Of a DNA stretch of 8,071 nt, positions 2 to 8,071 are shown one piece after another. The notes below the pieces were generated by a model. The model did no database searches. It saw only the letters and a list, made by a program, of their open reading frames with translations, and was not told the DNA's origin. The first letter of the stretch is position 1, and every line of letters starts with the position of its first letter. The stretch spans positions 25,572 through 33,642 of the forward strand of contig JALVPN010000091.1 of NCBI GenBank assembly GCA_027031765.1, written 5' to 3'. The stretch is from Promethearchaeota archaeon. Lineage in GTDB: Archaea > Asgardarchaeota > Thorarchaeia > Thorarchaeales > Thorarchaeaceae. A program made the position numbers and the translations under genes.

Positions 2-676
2 GACAACCAGCTCCGCGAACAGGGTGCGCTGGACAAGTACGACGAGGTCCTCAAGGAGGTGCCGCGTGTGCGTGCCGAACTCGGGTACCCGCCCCTCGTC
101 ACGCCCTCAAGCCAGATTGTCGGGACACAGGCGGTCCTCAATGTCATTACTGGCGAGCGCTACAAGATAATCCCGCATGAGGTCAAGCAGTACATCCGGG
201 GCTTCTACGGCCGTCCCCCAGCAGAGATAGACCCGGAAGTCCGTCGGCTCGCAATCGGGGACGAGGCCCCACTCACGTGCAGACCAGCAGACCTCCTCGA
301 GCCGGGCCTGCCTGCTGCGCGGGAGGCACTCAAGGACATCCCCCATAAGCCGCGCGACCTTGTGTCGTACGCGCTGTTCCCACAGTACGCACTGGACTTC
401 CTGAAACGCAGGGCCCAGCGCAGACAGCGCGGTACGACTACCGGGCCTCAGGAGGCAGCAATTATCGCCTCGGTGCTCCACCAGACCATCCAGATGGGCA
501 CCAGCCCCACCAGGGCTATGTCACATGGCAGCCCGTGGGCATCCGCCGGCCGCGAGGAGGCGGTATCGATACCCGTAGTGTATACCGGCCCGGGCCGCTG
601 GGGCAACTCAGGCTCACCTTGGTCCGCTGTCGGCCGCAGGCTCCTCATGCGTGCGAGGACCTTGGAGGGAGCATAG
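2..676 (+). CDS. pycB: Pyruvate carboxylase subunit B / oxaloacetate decarboxylase alpha family carboxyltransferase, 5'-truncated (C-terminal PYC_OADA region); no biotinyl domain; epsilon/PccX-like C-terminal tail
   Basis: The frame is open from nt 2 (DNQLREQGALDKYDEVLKEVPRVRAELGYPPLVTPSSQIVGTQAVLNV...ERYK...YIRGFYGRPP...ALFPQYA), so the GTG at 59 is internal. These are hallmark PycB/OadA/transcarboxylase-5S motifs. Stop TAG at 674-676. PycB, OadA and 5S cannot be told apart from this fragment. Confidence 0.9.
   Translation, partial: DNQLREQGALDKYDEVLKEVPRVRAELGYPPLVTPSSQIVGTQAVLNVITGERYKIIPHEVKQYIRGFYGRPPAEIDPEVRRLAIGDEAPLTCRPADLLEPGLPAAREALKDIPHKPRDLVSYALFPQYALDFLKRRAQRRQRGTTTGPQEAAIIASVLHQTIQMGTSPTRAMSHGSPWASAGREEAVSIPVVYTGPGRWGNSGSPWSAVGRRLLMRARTLEGA
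664..668 (+). promoter_or_regulatory. Shine-Dalgarno site for the biotin carrier gene
   Basis: GGAGG lies 7 nt upstream of the GTG at 676, embedded in the last codons of the upstream gene. Confidence 0.7.
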
Positions 677-1203
677 TGTCTTTCGAGTATGACATTTCCA
701 TTGACGGTCAGGACTATCGTGTGAGGATTGAGCGTCTTGACAGGGGTGGCCTCTTGGTAGTGCGCGTCGGAGACGAGACCTTCACCCTGAAGACCTCTCC
801 CAATGAGGATGGTACGTGGAGCGTGAGCGACCAGGCATCCAGCCATGTGGTGCGGGTCGTGCGTCGCATGGGCCGGAACGCCACCATCGAGCTCGACGGG
901 GTGTCACGAGAGGTCGAGTGGAAACGAGTACACAGGACGGTCGCTGCACAGAAGGCCCCAGAGGTACCTTCAGGGGGCGGCGGCCGGCAGCCCGGCGGTG
1001 TGTACCCGCCCATGCCCGGAAAGATCACCGAGGTGCTGGTCAGTGTGGGCGACAGGGTCGAGGAGGGCCAGACCGTGTGCATCCTCGAGGCCATGAAGAT
1101 GTTCAATGAGCTGCAGGCACCTTGCAGTGGCACCGTGCGTGAGGTGAACGTGACGCCTGGTGCTACTGTCAAGCAAGATGACCTGTTGGTCCTCATAGAG
1201 TGA
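676..1203 (+). CDS. Stand-alone biotin carboxyl carrier protein (biotinyl domain with an N-terminal beta-rich, BT-like region), 175 aa
   Basis: The GTG at 676 overlaps the upstream stop (TAGTG) and follows GGAGG at 664-668. C-terminal biotinyl domain PMPGKITEVLVSVGDRVEEGQTVCILEAMKMFNELQAPCSGTV, with EAMKM at 1087-1101. Ala/Pro/Gly-rich linker. The track's start at 535 overlaps the upstream gene and is unlikely. Confidence 0.92.
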   Translation: MSFEYDISIDGQDYRVRIERLDRGGLLVVRVGDETFTLKTSPNEDGTWSVSDQASSHVVRVVRRMGRNATIELDGVSREVEWKRVHRTVAAQKAPEVPSGGGGRQPGGVYPPMPGKITEVLVSVGDRVEEGQTVCILEAMKMFNELQAPCSGTVREVNVTPGATVKQDDLLVLIE

Positions 1204-1218: not shown

Positions 1219-2382
1219 GTGGAGCCTGTGTTCGTCATCGGTGTGAGTATGACCCGGTTCGGAGTGCTCGGGGAGTCGTTCGCTGAGCTGGCCCTGTCAG
1301 CGGCAGTCGAGGCGATGCGTGACTCCCATACCCTTGAGATGTCCGTTGACCGGGTGGTCGTGGGGAGTCAGAGCCCCGAGGAGTTTGTCAATACGGGCCA
1401 TGTGTCCACCATGCTGGCCGACCTGTTGGGCACTGTACCCGCCGGTGCCACGCGCGTTGAGACTGGCCCGTCTTCAGGTGCCAGTGCATTCGAACTCGGC
1501 TCGGCCCTAGTCGCGTCCGGTATGGCAGGACTGGTACTGGTCATCGGTGTCGAGAAGATGACGGCGGTGGAGCGTGGCACGGCATCACGGGTCCTTGCCA
1601 AGATGATGTCATACGAGTCCGAGACCCGCTACGGTGCAACGCCCACGGCCCTGGCCGCAATGATTGCTCGGCGGTACATGCACGACTACGGTCTGACACG
1701 CGATGAGCTCTCACTTGTCCCCGTCAAGGCCCATGCCAACGGTGCCAAGAACCCGCTGGCCCACTTCCAGAAGGGGGTGTCAGTGGAGAAGATCCGTAGG
1801 GCACGGGTCATAGCAGACCCACTCACTCTGTATGACTGCTGTCCCACAAGTGACGGCGCCGCAGCCCTCGTCCTCGCATCGTCGTCAGTTGTACGTGACC
1901 TCGGTCTGCGTGACCAGGCCGTGCGCGTGCTGGGCGTAGGTCATGCCACTGACTACCTCGCTGTCCAGCACCGTCTGTCCCTGACATCGATGGGCGCCAC
2001 CGTGCGCGCTGCTGAGAACGCCTTTCATATGGCCGGCCTCCGTCCATCAGATGTTGATGTCTGTGAGCTCCATGACGCCTTCTCAATCCTAGAACTGATA
2101 GCGATGGAGGACATTGGCATTGCGCAGCGTGGACACGCCATCGACCTCGTGAAGGAGGGCCTGACAGAGGTCTCGGGAGACATCCCAGTCAATACGACCG
2201 GTGGCCTGAAGGCAAGGGGTCACCCGACCGGAGCTACTGGTGTCGCGCAGCTCCGTGACCTCGTCCTGCAACTACGTGGTGATGCACCCAAGGGGCTACA
2301 GGTGGACTCCCCCAGTGTGGGACTGGCCCACAACATTGGTGGCTTTGGCAACAACATGGTCGTGACGCTTCTCGGTCTATGA
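1219..2382 (+). CDS. Thiolase-family protein, SCP2/archaeal type, non-canonical active site (387 aa)
   Basis: N-terminal VIGVSMTRFG, GVEKM, DCCPTSDGAAA, ELHDAF (HDAF 2071-2082), GGLKARGHPTGATG (GHP 2218-2226) and HNIGG (2329-2343). The nucleophile loop reads RVETGPSSG instead of the usual RVExACASG. Confidence 0.93.
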   Translation: MEPVFVIGVSMTRFGVLGESFAELALSAAVEAMRDSHTLEMSVDRVVVGSQSPEEFVNTGHVSTMLADLLGTVPAGATRVETGPSSGASAFELGSALVASGMAGLVLVIGVEKMTAVERGTASRVLAKMMSYESETRYGATPTALAAMIARRYMHDYGLTRDELSLVPVKAHANGAKNPLAHFQKGVSVEKIRRARVIADPLTLYDCCPTSDGAAALVLASSSVVRDLGLRDQAVRVLGVGHATDYLAVQHRLSLTSMGATVRAAENAFHMAGLRPSDVDVCELHDAFSILELIAMEDIGIAQRGHAIDLVKEGLTEVSGDIPVNTTGGLKARGHPTGATGVAQLRDLVLQLRGDAPKGLQVDSPSVGLAHNIGGFGNNMVVTLLGL

Positions 2383-2400
2383 AACACAGTCCGTCCGAGA

Positions 2401-2430
2401 TTATCTTATAATAAACATGTTGCTTAATGT
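2401..2430 (+). promoter_or_regulatory. Probable archaeal TATA-box promoter for the 2575 operon
   Basis: Strongest AT island in the window: TTATCTTATAATAAACATGTTGCTTAATGT, with TTATAATAAA at 2406-2415. It lies in the only long intergenic gap. The strand is inferred from the downstream genes. Confidence 0.55.
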
Positions 2431-2574
2431 TTCTGTCCATTGTCTTGGACTGTTGCCGCGGGTCGCTTCATCTGTACTGCGAGTGGTCTCGACCTCGCAG
2501 CCCCGCTCTGTGGCCATTCGGGCCTGACCGTTGTGAGTGGACCCGCACACCTAGCAGTTGGGAGATGACCCAGA

Positions 2575-3741
2575 ATGCCTGAAGGACTAGCAGTACTGAA
2601 GTGGGATGATGAACTTGGTCCAGTGGTCGCAGCAAAGACCCCGAAGTCCCTGACCAAGGGTCTGGACCCGACCACGTCCATGCGCGTCTATGGTATCGCT
2701 ACACTAGGGGAAACAGAAGAGTCACAGAAGCCTGGTTTCAGTGCACTGTCGTTTGACGACTTCAAACTTGCTGTGTACTATGGTGGTCTGAGCATGCACC
2801 TGAAGGGACTTCCGTCCATGGTGTTCTTGGTGCTGCGTCCCGACGAAGACCCTGACGTCTACAAGGACGCCCTACCTGAGCTGGCCACCCAGATCTTCCT
2901 GAACGCCGAGGGCAACAAGTACAAGAAGCTGATACCCAAGTTCTTCAAGCAGATTGCACGGTACACGCTGATGACGCCTGAACAACGACAGGCGTCCGTG
3001 CTGAGCGACCCCGTCCGCAGGGCAATCCTACAGACCCTTGTACGTGATGGCACCATCCAGTCCAATGACCTCGAACAGATAATCTTCGAAGAGGTCGGCA
3101 AGAAGATAGATGTGGAGATGGTGCTCCGCCCCCTGGTCAAGATGGGGATCATAGCCACCGGCTGGGTCGAGGGCCTAGCGTCTGAGGTGATATATCTCAC
3201 CCGTGCCATCTTCATACTGCGGAAGATATCGATGGAAACAGTCCGTGCGGTCAAGAGTGGTGGCCTGCCGCAGGACACGGTCGCCCAGTTCGTCGAGTCG
3301 ACACGTCGGTATCACCGGGACTACATTGCTCGCCTGAAACGAGACCTCACCGACACACTCTGGAAGGACGCAGAGGAGCTAGCGAAGGTGCTGCTCGACT
3401 TCGATGCATACGACCTGATTCAGATATTGCGCGAAGGGCCCCAGCAGACAGAACATCTCCCGAGCCTGCTCGATACGACCAAGGCCCGACTGCGGAAGCA
3501 GCTCTCGGCCCTTGAGAAGGCCAACATCGTAATGCGTGTGAATGATGAGGGGGGACGTGAGCATGTCCTCTTGAAGTCAGACCCAGAAGTTGTCACGGTC
3601 TACCCTGAGTGGCTGATAGAGCGGACAGTCGAGCTCTACAATGATGAGGCAATACCCAGTCGTCAGGCAGTCCACTACCTTGAGATACTGAAGAAGTCGC
3701 ACCCGACCTATGCGACAGTGACGGTCACGGGGGGTGAGTGA
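2575..3741 (+). CDS. Longin/uDENN-like domain plus two winged-helix domains (388 aa), function unknown
   Basis: The ORF is clear, with GGGAG at 2560-2564. N-terminal GLAVLKWDDELGPVVAAKTP resembles the uDENN/longin opening hairpin. Two ArsR-like wHTH segments: LSDPVRRAILQTL...VLRPLVKMGII (3001-3198) and LDFDAYDLIQIL...LRKQLSALEKANIV (3394-3573). Domain calls are by eye. Confidence 0.7.
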   Translation: MPEGLAVLKWDDELGPVVAAKTPKSLTKGLDPTTSMRVYGIATLGETEESQKPGFSALSFDDFKLAVYYGGLSMHLKGLPSMVFLVLRPDEDPDVYKDALPELATQIFLNAEGNKYKKLIPKFFKQIARYTLMTPEQRQASVLSDPVRRAILQTLVRDGTIQSNDLEQIIFEEVGKKIDVEMVLRPLVKMGIIATGWVEGLASEVIYLTRAIFILRKISMETVRAVKSGGLPQDTVAQFVESTRRYHRDYIARLKRDLTDTLWKDAEELAKVLLDFDAYDLIQILREGPQQTEHLPSLLDTTKARLRKQLSALEKANIVMRVNDEGGREHVLLKSDPEVVTVYPEWLIERTVELYNDEAIPSRQAVHYLEILKKSHPTYATVTVTGGE

Positions 3742-3742
3742 G

Positions 3743-6700
3743 ATGGTACGCGTAGAAAGAGTCGCAGTCCTTGTTGTCCTTGCAGTCCTCATGGCTCTCC
3801 CGTCCATTGGGGGCAACAACACCACGAGTCCCAGGGATGATGCCCTCGTACCGGATTTGCTGATAGGAGGGCCCCACCACGAGACCGCATCAGCACAGGA
3901 CACTGTACCGTGGTGGAACACGAGCTTTGCATATCGACGGTACTACAACATCACCGAACCAGGGATAAGCGCACGACACAATACCCCTGTCCACCTGTCC
4001 CTGACCTTCGCACCAGGGCACTGCTACCGTGGCTCAATCCGCGTGTTGTACTACGACGGCGTGTCGTGGGCAACAAGGCCGTTCCAGGTCTGGAACGTGA
4101 CCTATGATGCAACGGGCGACTATATCCTGTCTGCCCGTGTCAGTTTCCTGGTCAACGTCTCCAAGAGTGGGGTCCAACAGAACTACTACATCTACTACTC
4201 GAAGAACGACGTGGGCACTGTCAGTTATCCTGACTTCTACCCGTTCGTCTACAAGACCTACACCTACTCCTTGCTGGAGCTGGCATCCTACTATGACAAC
4301 AACAACTACGAGGTCCTGATGTGGGACAGCGCAGCCCAGCAGTGGGACGACCCACGCAATGTCGATTCCCAGTGGGCCTCAGCCACCGGTATCATCCAGT
4401 CGGGTGTTGTGACGAATGTCCCCACAGGTACGCTCAACAAGTACCAGAACGTGCGCATAGAGCCCAACGTGGCCTACACCAACACAGCATTCCTCGGGTC
4501 CTACATGGTGCGCTCGAACTACCCGCTTGCATTCACGGCTGGCAGTGGGCACAAGAACTCCAACCCGGCTGTGAACGACTGGTACCCGAATGTCGACGAG
4601 ATTGGTTGGGGTGTCGGGACACGGTTCATCATTGGTGGTGTTTCCGGTTTCGACAACTACTACGAGGGCAAGTACTGGGTACAGGCACAGACCAACAACA
4701 CCCGTGTCTGGGTATGGACGGTCTCGGAGACCCCGGATACAAACTGGTACTTCTACAATGGCTCCGCAGTGTCGTCGTGGCCAGCCATACTCCATGCGGG
4801 CGAGTATATCTCGAAGAAGCGTGTCAACTACCAGACCTTCTACATGGTGAACGCCACCGGCCTGATCTCAGTGCGGAGCGGTGATGTCGACGCTGCTTAC
4901 TCCCGTGACGTGATGGGCTTCTATCCTGCCGTGACCGGCCTCCTTGTCGGCAACGAGTTCTACACAATCGACATGGGCCACTCCTCCGACCGCACGCGTA
5001 TCACCAATATCGGTACTTCTGCGGTCTCGGTCACGGTCTACAGGAACAGCGGCTCCGGCTGGACACAGATTGCCACTCCACTGATTGCAGCAAACAGTCA
5101 CTATGACGTGCCCAACGGTGTTGCAAGCGACTCCAATCCTGAGGATGTGCTACACATTGTCGCTCCCGCCGGTGCGAAGCTGATGGTCGAGGGCACCTAC
5201 AACCCCGGGGGCCGCAGTGACCACGGTGACTGGTTCCCGACAACGGGTGGCTATCGGTTTGGTACTCACTTCACTATCTGGGGCTTCTCCCAGTCCAAGT
5301 TCTTCATATTCGCTTGGGAGAACGCACAGGTCACTATAACCGGCTCCAACGGTGGCACCCTCCAGATCCCAGCTGGTGGGGCTGACACGTTCCTGCCACT
5401 TTCGAGCAGCCCGTCCCTGTACACGGTCACGTCGAACGCGACCATCGGCATCGTGCGTGCCTCCCGGTTCTACACATCGGCACCCTACGGTCCACGCGGT
5501 GACCAGGGCTATGGCTGGATGGTACCCGTCTACTCTCCGGAAGGGGACGAGCACGGCGTGACAGTGACAGAGAGTCCAGAGCGCCACCTCTTCGAGTTCG
5601 ACATCGTTGTGACCGACCTCGATGGTGCAGCCATTTCAGGCGCAACCGTCACACTCTATGACCCTGCTACCCACCAGGTCTGGCTGGATGACAACGGCCT
5701 CAACCGGACAGGCGTATCTGATGCGAACGGCAGGGTCGTATTCGAGGGCCTCAACAACATGACCTACGAGATCAGGACGCGCATCGATGCCGCAACGTGG
5801 CTGTCCACATCATACTCCCATGTCTGGGTGACGGACACATCCAATCACGCCATGACGGCAACAGTAACGGATGTCCAGATCACGCTCAACATTGCAACGG
5901 TCTATGTCCACCTCAACGACCTCAATGGCGAGTCCATGGACGACACGGTGGACGAGGACATCCTGATGAAGATGTGCAATGATACCAGTGACGACTCCCA
6001 GTACATCCACATCGCACAGGCGAACGGTACGGGCTGGCTGGAGTTCCCGAGGGTGCCGGTGCCCCAGACGGAGTACTACTTCCGTGCCCGCTATGCTGGC
6101 GCACACTCGTGGAACTCGTACTCATACGACCAGCTCAAGCAGTTTGCGAACTGGAACGTCAGCGCCGCGGACTTTGCAAGTGGCTCGTTCACAGAGCACT
6201 GGGCCCTCCCACTGGTCACACTCCAGATCCATGTCCATAGCTGGGACAACCTCCCAGTCCCCAATGCCTACGTCGAGTTGAACAACACCATGGACGAGCA
6301 GGCGTACCGCATCAACCCGCAGACAACAGACTCCAACGGTAACGTCACACTCAGACGCGTTGTCAGTGGGACATGGAAACTCAATGTCTGGCGCGAAGAT
6401 GACTTCGGCCTTGAAGTGCGCAACAACACTGCTGCGATAGTCCTGCACAATGTCCAGTCGTACACTGCATTCACAGTGCAGCTCAGGCTGACCCGCTTGA
6501 ACGTGGTAGTCAAGTATGGTGCTGAGCAGAACAATGTCGAGGGCGCCACAGTGAAAGTGTACCTCAACAATGAAACGCTCGTAGCGACTGGACAGACTGA
6601 TTCCAGCGGTGAGGTGGTATTCAAGTGGATTCGTGGCAACATGTCCTCACCTCACTGGTGGTACACCATCGATGTTGCGAAGGGCACTTCCAATGTCACA

Positions 6701-8071
6701 CGGCAGGGCGTACGTGCAGACTACAACTACACCTACTGGAACCTGGTGGTCTTGCCAGAGCCAGCATATCCAAAACCGTACACGGAGTTCCAGTCGAGCT
6801 ATAGCTTTGAACAGCGGTGGTGGTACAAGAACTTCACCTTCACCTTCGACTACTGGAACCGGACAGGTAGCGAGTCGTCCTCAGTCCTGACCAACGTGAC
6901 GTACGACGCTACCACATTCGTGATGTTCAAGATATTCATGGGCAGCACCCTGATAGGACAGGACGTATGGACCACCACAACATCGCAGTACATCACCTGT
7001 CATGCCAACATCCACACGTTCAATGCAACAATCGACCTTGTGCACTGGGCCCTCAATGCGAGCGACACACCGTACCGCATTGTGGTGTCTGCCCACACGT
7101 ACGGCTACGCTGACCCCAAGGAACTCGTCATATACCTGACCGTGTTGGAGGCTGAAACCACCGCGGGCTCCGATACGGGTGGTTCAATTGTTGAGTACTA
7201 CAAGATGCACAGTGCGCACCTGTTCTGGCTCAACGACACGAAAAATGGTGGCAATGTGAGCAGTCTGGACACCCACTCCTACTCGGTGCACCTTGGGCTG
7301 ACCGTACTACGCTCAGGACAGCTGACCGACAATGGCAATGGGACATACACACTGCCCGCCAGTGCCCTCCACGGCCTCGATGTGGGCACCTACGTTCTGA
7401 TTGCGAACCTGACCAAGCAGAACTTCGAGTCGGCTGTGCTCAGCATCGAGGTCACAATACGTGAGGTGCCAATGGCTGTCGACATCTCGCCGCACGCCTC
7501 CTACGAGTGGTCACTGGCGGCGGACCAGCTCCTCTTCAGGTACAACATCGCCAGCAACGGCACCACGCCCGACCTAGGAGGTATTTCCGTTACCATTGTG
7601 TGGATCAACCACACCTCTGGCACCGAGTACCTCACGGTCGAGAGGACTCTCAGCCTTAGTGGTGGGGACTATATCTACTCGTTCACACGCAATGTGGTGC
7701 CTGTCGGCCAGTGGGAGGTCAGGGTCACATGCAAGGCCGACAACTATGCAGAGGCGTCAGATGTGCTGGTCTACATCACGGTCTCTGCCGCAGCGACCAC
7801 TGCAACACCCGACCACGCGTCGGTGTCGGTGGACTGGGGCTCTGATGCGACGTTCGATGTGGCCTTCTCCAGAAACAGCGACTCTGCCGGTCTTGCTGGT
7901 GCTACTGTGACCCACAACTGGACCCAGCCCATAATCATCACCGACCTCGGCGACGGCCACTACACGGTGGTTGCAAAGACGCTTCTTGAGGCAGGCACAT
8001 ACACGCTGCACCTGACGTTCAGCACGGCGAACCACCAGGACGCGAGCGTCGACCTCTCAGTGGTCATATAC
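3743..8071 (+). CDS. Giant exported or cell-surface multidomain glycoprotein (adhesin/S-layer-like), 3'-truncated, >1443 aa
   Basis: Manual translation from ATG 3743 shows no stop through nt 8071 (1443 codons). It is missing from the ORF track, presumably because the stop lies outside the window. SD-like GGGGGGTGA at 3729-3737. Signal peptide MVRVERVAVLVVLAVLMALPSIGG. DUF2341-like PWWNTSFAYRRYYNIT...YYIYYS (3908-4201), then beta-rich repeats. About 34 N-X-S/T sequons by manual count. Confidence 0.92.
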   Translation, partial: MVRVERVAVLVVLAVLMALPSIGGNNTTSPRDDALVPDLLIGGPHHETASAQDTVPWWNTSFAYRRYYNITEPGISARHNTPVHLSLTFAPGHCYRGSIRVLYYDGVSWATRPFQVWNVTYDATGDYILSARVSFLVNVSKSGVQQNYYIYYSKNDVGTVSYPDFYPFVYKTYTYSLLELASYYDNNNYEVLMWDSAAQQWDDPRNVDSQWASATGIIQSGVVTNVPTGTLNKYQNVRIEPNVAYTNTAFLGSYMVRSNYPLAFTAGSGHKNSNPAVNDWYPNVDEIGWGVGTRFIIGGVSGFDNYYEGKYWVQAQTNNTRVWVWTVSETPDTNWYFYNGSAVSSWPAILHAGEYISKKRVNYQTFYMVNATGLISVRSGDVDAAYSRDVMGFYPAVTGLLVGNEFYTIDMGHSSDRTRITNIGTSAVSVTVYRNSGSGWTQIATPLIAANSHYDVPNGVASDSNPEDVLHIVAPAGAKLMVEGTYNPGGRSDHGDWFPTTGGYRFGTHFTIWGFSQSKFFIFAWENAQVTITGSNGGTLQIPAGGADTFLPLSSSPSLYTVTSNATIGIVRASRFYTSAPYGPRGDQGYGWMVPVYSPEGDEHGVTVTESPERHLFEFDIVVTDLDGAAISGATVTLYDPATHQVWLDDNGLNRTGVSDANGRVVFEGLNNMTYEIRTRIDAATWLSTSYSHVWVTDTSNHAMTATVTDVQITLNIATVYVHLNDLNGESMDDTVDEDILMKMCNDTSDDSQYIHIAQANGTGWLEFPRVPVPQTEYYFRARYAGAHSWNSYSYDQLKQFANWNVSAADFASGSFTEHWALPLVTLQIHVHSWDNLPVPNAYVELNNTMDEQAYRINPQTTDSNGNVTLRRVVSGTWKLNVWREDDFGLEVRNNTAAIVLHNVQSYTAFTVQLRLTRLNVVVKYGAEQNNVEGATVKVYLNNETLVATGQTDSSGEVVFKWIRGNMSSPHWWYTIDVAKGTSNVTRQGVRADYNYTYWNLVVLPEPAYPKPYTEFQSSYSFEQRWWYKNFTFTFDYWNRTGSESSSVLTNVTYDATTFVMFKIFMGSTLIGQDVWTTTTSQYITCHANIHTFNATIDLVHWALNASDTPYRIVVSAHTYGYADPKELVIYLTVLEAETTAGSDTGGSIVEYYKMHSAHLFWLNDTKNGGNVSSLDTHSYSVHLGLTVLRSGQLTDNGNGTYTLPASALHGLDVGTYVLIANLTKQNFESAVLSIEVTIREVPMAVDISPHASYEWSLAADQLLFRYNIASNGTTPDLGGISVTIVWINHTSGTEYLTVERTLSLSGGDYIYSFTRNVVPVGQWEVRVTCKADNYAEASDVLVYITVSAAATTATPDHASVSVDWGSDATFDVAFSRNSDSAGLAGATVTHNWTQPIIITDLGDGHYTVVAKTLLEAGTYTLHLTFSTANHQDASVDLSVVIY
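4232..5527 (+). repeat. Four degenerate ~100-115 aa protein repeats, IgGFc-binding (FCGBP N-terminal)-like
   Basis: Boundary motifs DFYP (4232), DWYP (4577), GFYP (4916), DWFP (5228) and GWMVP (5513). Internal motifs TLNKYQ/ILHAGEY/LIAANSH/QIPAGG and MVRSNYPLA/MVNATGLIS/TVTSNATIG. No clear DNA-level repeat. Confidence 0.55.
5591..6760 (+). repeat. Four tandem carboxypeptidase-regulatory-like / transthyretin-like beta-sandwich domains
   Basis: Units start near 5591 (VVTDLDGAAISGATVTL...SDANGRVVF), 5894 (HLNDLNGESM...ANGTGWLEF), 6212 (HVHSWDNLPVPNAYVEL...TDSNGNVTL) and 6488 (NNVEGATVKV...TDSSGEVVF). Confidence 0.65.
7150..8071 (+). repeat. Tandem ~100-aa Ig-like stalk repeats
   Basis: Recurring hairpin motif DNGNGTYT (7328), SGGDYIY (~7658) and DLGDGHYT (7943), each followed by a G-T/Q-Y/W-x-hydrophobic strand and an N-Y/F/H-E/Q-x-A segment. 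Boundaries are approximate. Confidence 0.55.

Follow-up and report, generated by a model that had tools for sequence, protein, structure and literature searches.

NPRL2 and NPRL3 (Npr2 and Npr3 in yeast) are the longin subunits of GATOR1/SEACIT, the GTPase-activating protein (GAP) for RagA/Gtr1, and C9orf72 forms with SMCR8 a longin-DENN complex that acts as GAP on Arf GTPases. Winged helices in tandem bind proteins in both NPRL2/3 and ESCRT-II. In NPRL2 and NPRL3 an N-terminal longin domain is followed by two or more winged helix-turn-helix (wHTH) repeats, and longin domains more widely are recurrent GTPase platforms (Levine et al. 2013, PMC3747258). A protein of similar size and the same layout, a longin domain and then winged helices, is encoded by P0001, a gene in an 8,071-nucleotide stretch of a Promethearchaeota genome (contig JALVPN010000091.1, positions 25,572 to 33,642; hereafter the window). 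Small GTPases and longin/roadblock proteins number in the dozens in the genomes of Asgard archaea, and almost none of them can be paired; the P0001 locus provides a concrete partner set of three parts: a surface protein whose inner tail is conserved, a longin adaptor of NPRL2-like shape with the GAP-longin hairpin motif, and one specific Arf-like GTPase. The set is conserved across many of the phylum's families, in some of them as a fusion. On the best reading, to which a probability of roughly 0.6 is given, P0001 itself would work in the cytoplasm on the inner side of the membrane, binding proteins as an adaptor for, or regulator of, a small-GTPase switch, and would not be a DNA-binding factor.

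Part of this picture has precedent. A preprint by Liu et al. (10.1101/2020.10.19.343400) describes an NPRL2-like longin family, defined as an Asgard cluster of orthologous genes (asCOG), in most metagenome-assembled genomes of the Thorarchaeota (Thor) and in “a few Loki”, and Asgard NPRL2-like longin asCOGs were also used in PMC9834061. The P0001 family is very probably the one named there, differing in that it is far wider than the stated “a few Loki”, being present in 115 of 151 genomes. The preprint text consulted mentions neither linkage to a giant protein or an Arf-like GTPase nor fusions. Longin domains of Lokiarchaeota (Loki) fused to Arf-like GTPases have already been published, the operon analysis of Loki GTPases was named as an open question by Dey et al. 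(2016), and the GTPase genes of MK-D1 generally lie in operons without roadblock, longin or TRAPPC3 genes (Tran et al. 2024). In the open-access literature, the three-gene linkage of adaptor, giant and dedicated Arf-like GTPase was not found, nor were the fusions. The bare longin plus winged-helix architecture is already published; as a module of receptor tail, adaptor and GTPase it is a new form of the longin-based theme of GTPase regulation.

P0001 is a real gene and not a chance frame, since 192 proteins match it at E <= 1e-3, the best 120 of the 192 being 66-80% identical and ~388 residues long; the frame has no internal stop. Where a source is named among these best 120, it is nearly always Thorarchaeota, and the Asgard, eukaryotic-signature-like setting proposed in the initial annotation of the window holds. 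A search run without a word index extended the family to 180 representatives (50% clustering), the majority full-length and 21-35% identical to P0001. Relatives include the SMTZ1-45 protein AM325_011815.

The gene is followed on its contig by those for a giant surface protein of 2311 residues and a GTPase of 293 residues (contig C91, 36539-37420). The giant carries an N-terminal signal or anchor segment (aa 4-28), Ig-like, CarboxypepD_reg and bMG3 domains, and a single C-terminal transmembrane helix (~aa 2106-2129), beyond which the cytoplasmic tail begins with a basic juxtamembrane segment, R-W-R-I-P-Y-Q-V-K-Q-I-N-R-A-I-K, and closes with acidic P/E repeats. The GTPase comprises an N-terminal domain of ~120 residues and an Arf-family G domain (GHGGTGKT, DLGGQ, NKQD; Pfam Arf, E 9e-13), and its homologues, 77-90% identical in the best 120 listed, are from Thorarchaeota wherever named. 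Gtr1_RagA matched the GTPase of a paralogous locus at E 0.02 and was unlisted for the P0001-linked GTPase, and an Atlas feature search with the N-terminal domain of the GTPase gave a chance-level score (0.75). The order adaptor, giant, GTPase and small coiled-coil proteins is kept in other Thor genomes; one lineage has the order giant, P0001-type gene, GTPase. In relatives, the gap between the P0001-type gene and the next called gene is 0-2 nt, and the arrangement at the junction suggests that P0001 and the giant gene may be translationally coupled.

How widely the linkage extends was addressed by a profile of 60 diverse members, searched against a sample of 151 genomes from across the phylum, and by a survey of 24 loci from many of its families, made up of 20-kb stretches (shorter at contig ends) around 20 further members together with the earlier loci, in which open reading frames (ORFs) were scored with custom hidden Markov models. 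The family occurs in 58 of the 72 high-quality genomes, in up to 12 copies per genome, and a P0001-type protein is present in all 26 genomes of the host’s own taxonomic family, which agrees with the Thor occurrence given by Liu et al.; four families of the phylum gave no match (0/13, 0/4, 0/5 and 0/7 genomes, some of them complete single-contig assemblies). An ORF of at least 900 residues is directly adjacent or fused at 16 of the 24 loci, and an Arf-like GTPase, mostly with the same N-terminal domain, is adjacent or within ~1.5 kb at ~14. Both are missing at a single locus, L026, whose stretch is shortened by a contig end. Adaptor and GTPase occur without a giant at L016, L023-L025 and L027, and at the C216 pair of the window’s own genome. 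That genome holds five family members, two of them full-length (on C91, the contig of P0001, and on C216). Just three ORFs in it match the model of the GTPase N-terminal domain, and each full-length member adjoins one of them; among the 26 G-domain matches in the genome, these two linked GTPases also rank first and second. With 76 long ORFs and 26 G-domain matches in ~3 Mb, a rough estimate puts chance adjacency at only a few percent.

In AT-rich, Loki-type lineages the giant and the adaptor are fused into single proteins of 1330-2663 residues, which run from a signal or anchor segment through a Laminin_G/Ig ectodomain, one transmembrane helix and a conserved linker of ~90 residues into the longin and twin winged-helix module. 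All 16 giants examined, fused or not, have a single C-terminal transmembrane helix followed by the motif [RK]-I-P-x-x-[IV]-K-[KQ]-[IV]. The initial annotation had left the function of P0001 as either a GTPase regulator or a longin-gated transcription factor. Of the two, the regulator is favoured, because the gene and its paralogues adjoin dedicated Arf-like GTPases and because the module is elsewhere fused to the tail of a membrane protein; the transcription factor is disfavoured.

Structure prediction bears out the longin domain. In the AlphaFold2 (AF2) model of full-length P0001 (24 orthologues; predicted local distance difference test, pLDDT, 78.7; predicted template-modelling score, pTM, 0.69), DSSP assigned strands at residues 4-11, 15-22, 54-59, 64-69 and 80-87 and helices at 32-43, 99-109 and 112-128. 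This reproduces almost residue for residue the order that had been read from the letters alone, with its W-D-D-E-L-G-P hairpin and following proline. The domain opens with a strand and has no N-terminal helix, whereas a roadblock domain would open with a helix. Superposition of residues 2-132 by VIA-align placed first a Roadblock-Longin protein from Lokiarchaeota (8yqg; Z 10.3-10.4, root-mean-square deviation (rmsd) 4.0, 130 aa). Next stood a GATOR1 chain of NPRL2 type (9o5a_H, residues 7-142; Z 10.2, rmsd 3.1, 123 aa), one of several GATOR1 chains covering residues 7-142, labelled NPRL2 by length only, which gave Z 10.2-9.6 with rmsd ~3.1 over 121-123 aa. Lst4 (9.9), Ykt6 (9.9), VAMP7 (9.7), Sec22b (9.6), FNIP2 (9.2), DENND1 (8.9-8.6), FLCN (6nzd_H, 8.6) and C9orf72-SMCR8 (7o2w_A, 8.2) also matched, with roadblocks at ~8, below the longins. 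Among the best superpositions (the Loki longin, NPRL2-type chains, Ykt6, VAMP7 and Sec22b; Z 10.4-9.6, 106-130 aligned residues), values are tied within ~1 unit and NPRL2 is not separated from SNARE-type longins. The longin fold of the modelled N-terminal domain is firm, and the kind of longin is not given by the search.

At the level of sequence the expected families did not appear: Pfam and NCBIfam scans of P0001 and 60 relatives matched no longin, NPR2, NPR3, uDENN or roadblock model, so that this part of the initial annotation is not supported by sequence models. The NPR2 model in particular (PF06218) had no match at E <= 1 in P0001 or the 60 relatives, its best match genome-wide being one of E 0.2 at another locus. 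A HMMER profile of the longin domain (69 sequences) returned only chance rows against PDB sequences (E >= 0.8). An Atlas feature search with the longin part gave scores of 0.82-0.83 and included one Asgard cluster with NPR2 in 19% of its members, which is a lead only. As no Pfam NPR2 or longin model matches, P0001 is not filed as a member of the NPRL2 family.

The hairpin between the first two strands is more informative as to class. In C9orf72 this hairpin reads W33-D34...G38-P39, and G-P at that position occurs in FLCN, NPRL2, SMCR8 and C9orf72 and is absent from FNIP2, NPRL3 and non-GAP longins (PMC12290439). P0001 has W10-D11-x-x-x-G15-P16, with spacing equal to that of C9orf72 and with G-P at the start of strand 2 as in NPRL2, and since the G-P is reported as specific to GAP longins, it is to this class that the motif points. 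Counted over 60 diverse members of the family, conservation stands at 57 for W10, 48 for D11, 57 for G15, 13 for P16 and 59 for P23, which sits after strand 2. Among Thor orthologues the longin domain is the best conserved part of the protein, with an entropy of 0.35 bit that falls to 0.18 in the hairpin. The likeness to C9orf72 extends to an Arf-type GTPase on both sides; the differences are that P0001 has winged helices in place of a DENN domain, that it is not known to have an SMCR8-like partner, and that the proline of the motif is kept in few relatives, as counted above.

The C-terminal half was modelled separately (aa 133-388, 66 diverse sequences) with pLDDT 95.5 and pTM 0.87, and contains two units of the order helix-strand-helix-helix-strand-strand, at residues 146-208 and 276-333, with long helices between them at 220-274. 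Two degenerate wHTH units with a helical insert had been proposed at residues 143-208 and 274-333, and the model moves those boundaries by no more than a few residues. The NPRL2/NPRL3-like domain order stands likewise, the models giving a longin domain and then two winged helices, the architecture reported for NPRL2/3 (PMC3747258). Profiles of the first and second winged helix (wH1 and wH2) align with a probability of 97.7% (hhalign, E 1.9e-12, 76 columns), which identifies the two as an internal duplication. The helical insert is among the least conserved parts in Thor orthologues (identity to P0001 0.49, entropy 1.28 bit), and P344, L369 and L372, in the closing helical segment, are conserved at 90% or more in the wide family, P344 being near-invariant. 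The sole near-invariant arginine of the protein, R216 (nt 3220-3222; 59 of 60 diverse relatives), follows the wing of wH1. It is succeeded by P-P in most relatives, but not in the Thor subfamily.

Searched alone, the C-terminal half retrieves archaeal twin-wHTH regulators, ESCRT-II and ArsR/SmtB proteins; in Foldseek these included PF0095 of Pyrococcus furiosus (E 8e-4, 218-231 columns) and ESCRT-II EAP30 (3cuq_A; E 1.2e-3, 203 columns), and NPRL2/3 chains were absent from the top 50 of both Foldseek and VIA-align, the matches listed by the latter lying mostly on wH2, with wH1 barely sampled. In the structural comparison with NPRL2/3, then, the longin domain superposes, at Z values shared with SNARE longins, and the C-terminal half by itself finds other families. 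ESCRT-II (EAP30/Vps22, Vps36 and Vps25) has in common with P0001 its tandem winged helices, which it uses for protein contacts; it lacks a longin, the global TM-score is 0.21-0.24, and no ESCRT context exists at the P0001 locus. The archaeal twin-wHTH clusters of the Atlas (~195 aa) reach a TM-score of 0.64-0.66 by target against the C-terminal half. PF0095 differs in the orientation of one winged helix to the other (TM-score 0.26-0.30).

Taken as an adaptor, P0001 would engage the Arf-like GTPase, the product of the second gene downstream, with its longin domain as the platform; that domain carries the WDxxxGP hairpin that typifies eukaryotic GAP-type longins. The twin winged helices and C-terminal helices would serve as protein-protein modules, as in NPRL2/3 and ESCRT-II, and may tether P0001 to the giant’s conserved juxtamembrane segment, a link that in Loki-type lineages would have been made covalent through gene fusion. 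The folds, the hairpin motif, the pattern of conservation, the linkage of the genes and their fusions are shown, and physical binding of P0001 to both the giant’s tail and the GTPase is what this arrangement would predict; a complex prediction for full-length P0001 and the GTPase scored 0.00, which is no verdict and counts neither way. That P0001 acts as a GAP is unlikely, a GEF (guanine-nucleotide exchange factor) or plain scaffold being the other options. Rather less probable again is the wider proposal that the family is an archaeal forerunner of the eukaryotic longin GTPase regulators (NPRL2/3, FLCN/FNIP and C9orf72/SMCR8), working as a receptor-tethered switch: the giant would hold the module on its juxtamembrane tail, and a dedicated Arf-like GTPase would be under the module’s control. 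If true, events at the cell surface would be relayed to a small-GTPase switch inside the Asgard cell. The module bears on the origin of eukaryotic longin GAP complexes, and the partner set makes binding, GAP/GEF activity and localisation testable with recombinant proteins.

Several observations weigh against a role in controlling the linked GTPase through protein contacts. The longin domain (aa 1-132) has no arginine conserved across the family among 60 relatives. The loop between strands 4 and 5, where Arg78, the arginine finger of NPRL2, lies, is formed in P0001 by an insert that is specific to Thor proteins and a gap in most relatives; it carries K77, replaced by R in one orthologue. Given the lack of a conserved longin arginine and the Thor-only nature of this loop, a classical arginine-finger GAP is not evident from the alignments, a difference from NPRL2/NPRL3, as is the lack of any known DEPDC5-like subunit; with WD and GP present and no obvious finger of its own, the family looks closer to a C9orf72-type partner than to NPRL2 itself. 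The profile of the GTPase’s N-terminal domain does not align with that of the P0001 longin (hhalign probability 1.5%). An Odin-type genome has the adaptor-giant pair without an adjacent GTPase. The 24 surveyed loci share descent, and the counts given for them overstate independence, no statistic having been derived. Finally, wH2 is a good structural match to DNA-binding ArsR/SmtB repressors, with the Pfam HTH_20 model close to its cut-off.

The first of the competing explanations draws on several of these points. P0001 could serve the giant as a dedicated partner in biogenesis, anchoring or quality control, holding or sorting the giant’s tail or connecting it with coiled-coil or cytoskeletal proteins; it would not regulate the GTPase directly, and the GTPase would be a neighbour only through a shared pathway. 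Linkage to the giant is more constant than linkage to the GTPase, as the 16 of 24 loci and the fusions attest, several Loki-type loci resemble the Odin-type genome in having the pair alone, coiled-coil proteins lie behind the GTPase in Thor operons, and the longin domain shows no conserved catalytic arginine. Set against this are the standing of longins as recurrent GTPase platforms (PMC3747258), the six places already named at which adaptor and GTPase are together with no giant, and the WDxxxG hairpin, better conserved than any other motif and in keeping with the GAP class of longins. On balance this account is improbable, to about the same degree as the receptor-tethered switch.

Somewhat less probable still is a longin-gated transcription factor, in which the winged helices bind DNA, perhaps at the promoter of the operon itself, the longin senses a ligand or the state of a GTPase, and the fused forms are membrane-tethered, with or without later release. 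The similarity of wH2 to CzrA, SmtB, HlyU and Rv0081 (Z 8.5-8.7, rmsd 2.2-3.2; for CzrA and Rv0081, Z 8.7 over 75-83 aa), and to ArsR/SmtB proteins at rmsd 1.2-2.3 Å, places it within the wHTH fold, a full-length HMMER profile matched only wHTH regulators in the PDB (PH1932 at E 2e-4), and the match of the C-terminal half to PF0095 is of the same kind. The recognition helix of wH2 (aa 303-315) has a net charge of +4, and relatives are annotated at source as ArsR, HxlR or MarR regulators. The Pfam models concerned nonetheless stay below threshold, HTH_20 matching wH2 at E 2e-5 with 24.9 bits against a 27-bit cut-off and HTH_5 reaching 17 bits against 22; at E <= 1 they match 9 and 6 of the 60 relatives, respectively. 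Protein binding is favoured over DNA binding on three grounds. The module is repeatedly fused behind the transmembrane helix of a giant, and hence membrane-bound. Close orthologues vary most in the HTH helices of wH2 (entropy 1.5-1.9 bit, the recognition helix being at 1.5 against 0.35 for the longin) and hardly at all in the longin domain; the “recognition” helix of wH1 is hydrophobic, and P0001 as a whole has a net charge of -6. NPRL2/3 and ESCRT-II, lastly, provide precedents of tandem winged helices that bind proteins. Up to 12 paralogues per genome, each paired with its own giant, also sit poorly with a transcription factor, and the archaeal tandem-wHTH and ArsR/SmtB proteins differ from P0001, which has an extra N-terminal longin domain and whose genomic partners are a GTPase and a membrane protein in place of target operons.

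A true NPRL2/NPRL3 orthologue, part of a GAP complex that senses nutrients in the manner of GATOR1 and acts on Rag-type GTPases, is highly improbable: the identical domain order, the place of NPRL2-type chains near the top of the longin superpositions, where at 12-14% their identity exceeds that of every other longin match listed, and the naming of a Thor family as NPRL2-like by Liu et al. are outweighed by the absence of a Pfam NPR2 match in P0001 or the genome, by longin Z values tied with those of SNARE longins, by a C-terminal half that alone retrieves no NPRL2/3, by a linked GTPase that is Arf-like and not Rag-like, by a giant, single-pass and sometimes fused surface partner that has no GATOR1 counterpart, and by the lack of a TOR kinase homologue in Asgard archaea according to the same preprint. 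GATOR1 chains were found by Foldseek over 360-456 columns (E 3e-3 to 3e-2) with the full model, the C-terminal model alone listing other families, and an Atlas shape search returned Asgard clusters at a TM-score of 0.84-0.86 and, as its sole eukaryotic cluster, NPRL2, at 0.36 over 183 residues across aa 2-388. A search for PF12257 (IML1) gave no match, and as its controls also remained without a match it is uninformative.

The features of the window, which has a G+C content of 56-64%, are collected in Table 1. Upstream of P0001 lie the carboxyltransferase, biotin-carrier and thiolase genes, whose order next to the P0001 gene is kept in other Thor genomes (L007 and L008), where ~200-260 nt separate them from the P0001 relative; given this gap, they are probably a unit of their own. 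The intergenic region between them and P0001 may act as a promoter, as its TATA-like and Shine-Dalgarno (SD)-like elements suggest. An Rfam scan of the window matched no family, and the predicted RNA folding of this intergenic region was no better than that of shuffled sequences (z -0.62).

Table 1. Features of the window, with positions in nucleotides of the 8,071-nucleotide stretch; aa, amino acid residues of P0001.
Feature	Position	Strand	Basis and remarks
Carboxyltransferase, 3' end	2-676	+	
Biotin-carrier domain protein	535-1203	+	
Thiolase-fold protein	1219-2382	+	
Upstream intergenic region, 192 nt	2383-2574	+	TATA-like AT-rich TTATAATAAA (2406-2415), SD-like GGGAGATGA (2560-2568); read from sequence
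P0001 gene, longin + twin winged-helix protein	2575-3741	+	388 aa; ATG start, stop TGA 3739-3741; ORF list and translation
Longin domain, aa 1-132	2575-2970	+	AF2 secondary structure; structural superposition
W-D-D-E-L-G-P hairpin motif, aa 10-16, between strands 1 and 2	2602-2622	+	Read from sequence
Winged helix 1, aa 133-217, ends with R216	2971-3225	+	C-terminal model; Foldseek; hhalign to wH2
Helical insert between winged helices, aa 218-274	3226-3396	+	Helices 220-228, 233-256, 258-274, both models
Winged helix 2, aa 275-342, ArsR/SmtB-like shape	3397-3600	+	Pfam HTH_20; VIA-align
C-terminal helical segment, aa 343-388, opens with Y-P-E-W	3601-3738	+	Helices 345-357, 362-375, 377-387, both models
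Junction of P0001 and giant gene	3730-3745	+	SD-like GGGGGTGAG (3730-3738) within last codons; TGA 3739-3741; ATG 3743
Giant surface protein gene, 5' part	3734-8071, runs beyond window	+	Pfam; full ORF L005:106-7041

The tail of the giant (L005:6400-7041) ends in acidic tandem P/E repeats of the type E-P-E-A-V-E-P-E-V-T-E. Loki-type giants have a different acidic repeat at the same place, E-Y-P-E-V-E-K-E-P-S-E-P-E, and an acidic repeat tail thus recurs in both lineages. Behind the GTPase gene, relatives of the locus encode proteins of 186-193, 122-128 and 113 residues (L007:19371-20314 and L008:18774-20196), which have weak coiled-coil-type Pfam matches only; the window’s contig ends before this point.

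Further copies of the family were seen within the window’s genome and beyond it. On contig C27, a third, divergent adaptor-like ORF (C27:1192-2235, E 1e-8) lies 6 kb from C27:8057-9541, the genome’s only other ORF matching the model of the GTPase N-terminal domain (E 3e-6), and the two may form a third pairing. Contig C130 carries two tandem paralogues (L004:1345-1896 and 2114-2794) beside a thymidylate kinase gene, one of them longin-only with 183 residues and the other cut by the contig end after wH1. In another genome of the same taxonomic family (L014, G069:C1:1220000-1239999), the pair is doubled in tandem, in the order adaptor, giant of 2216 residues, adaptor and giant of at least 2126 residues.

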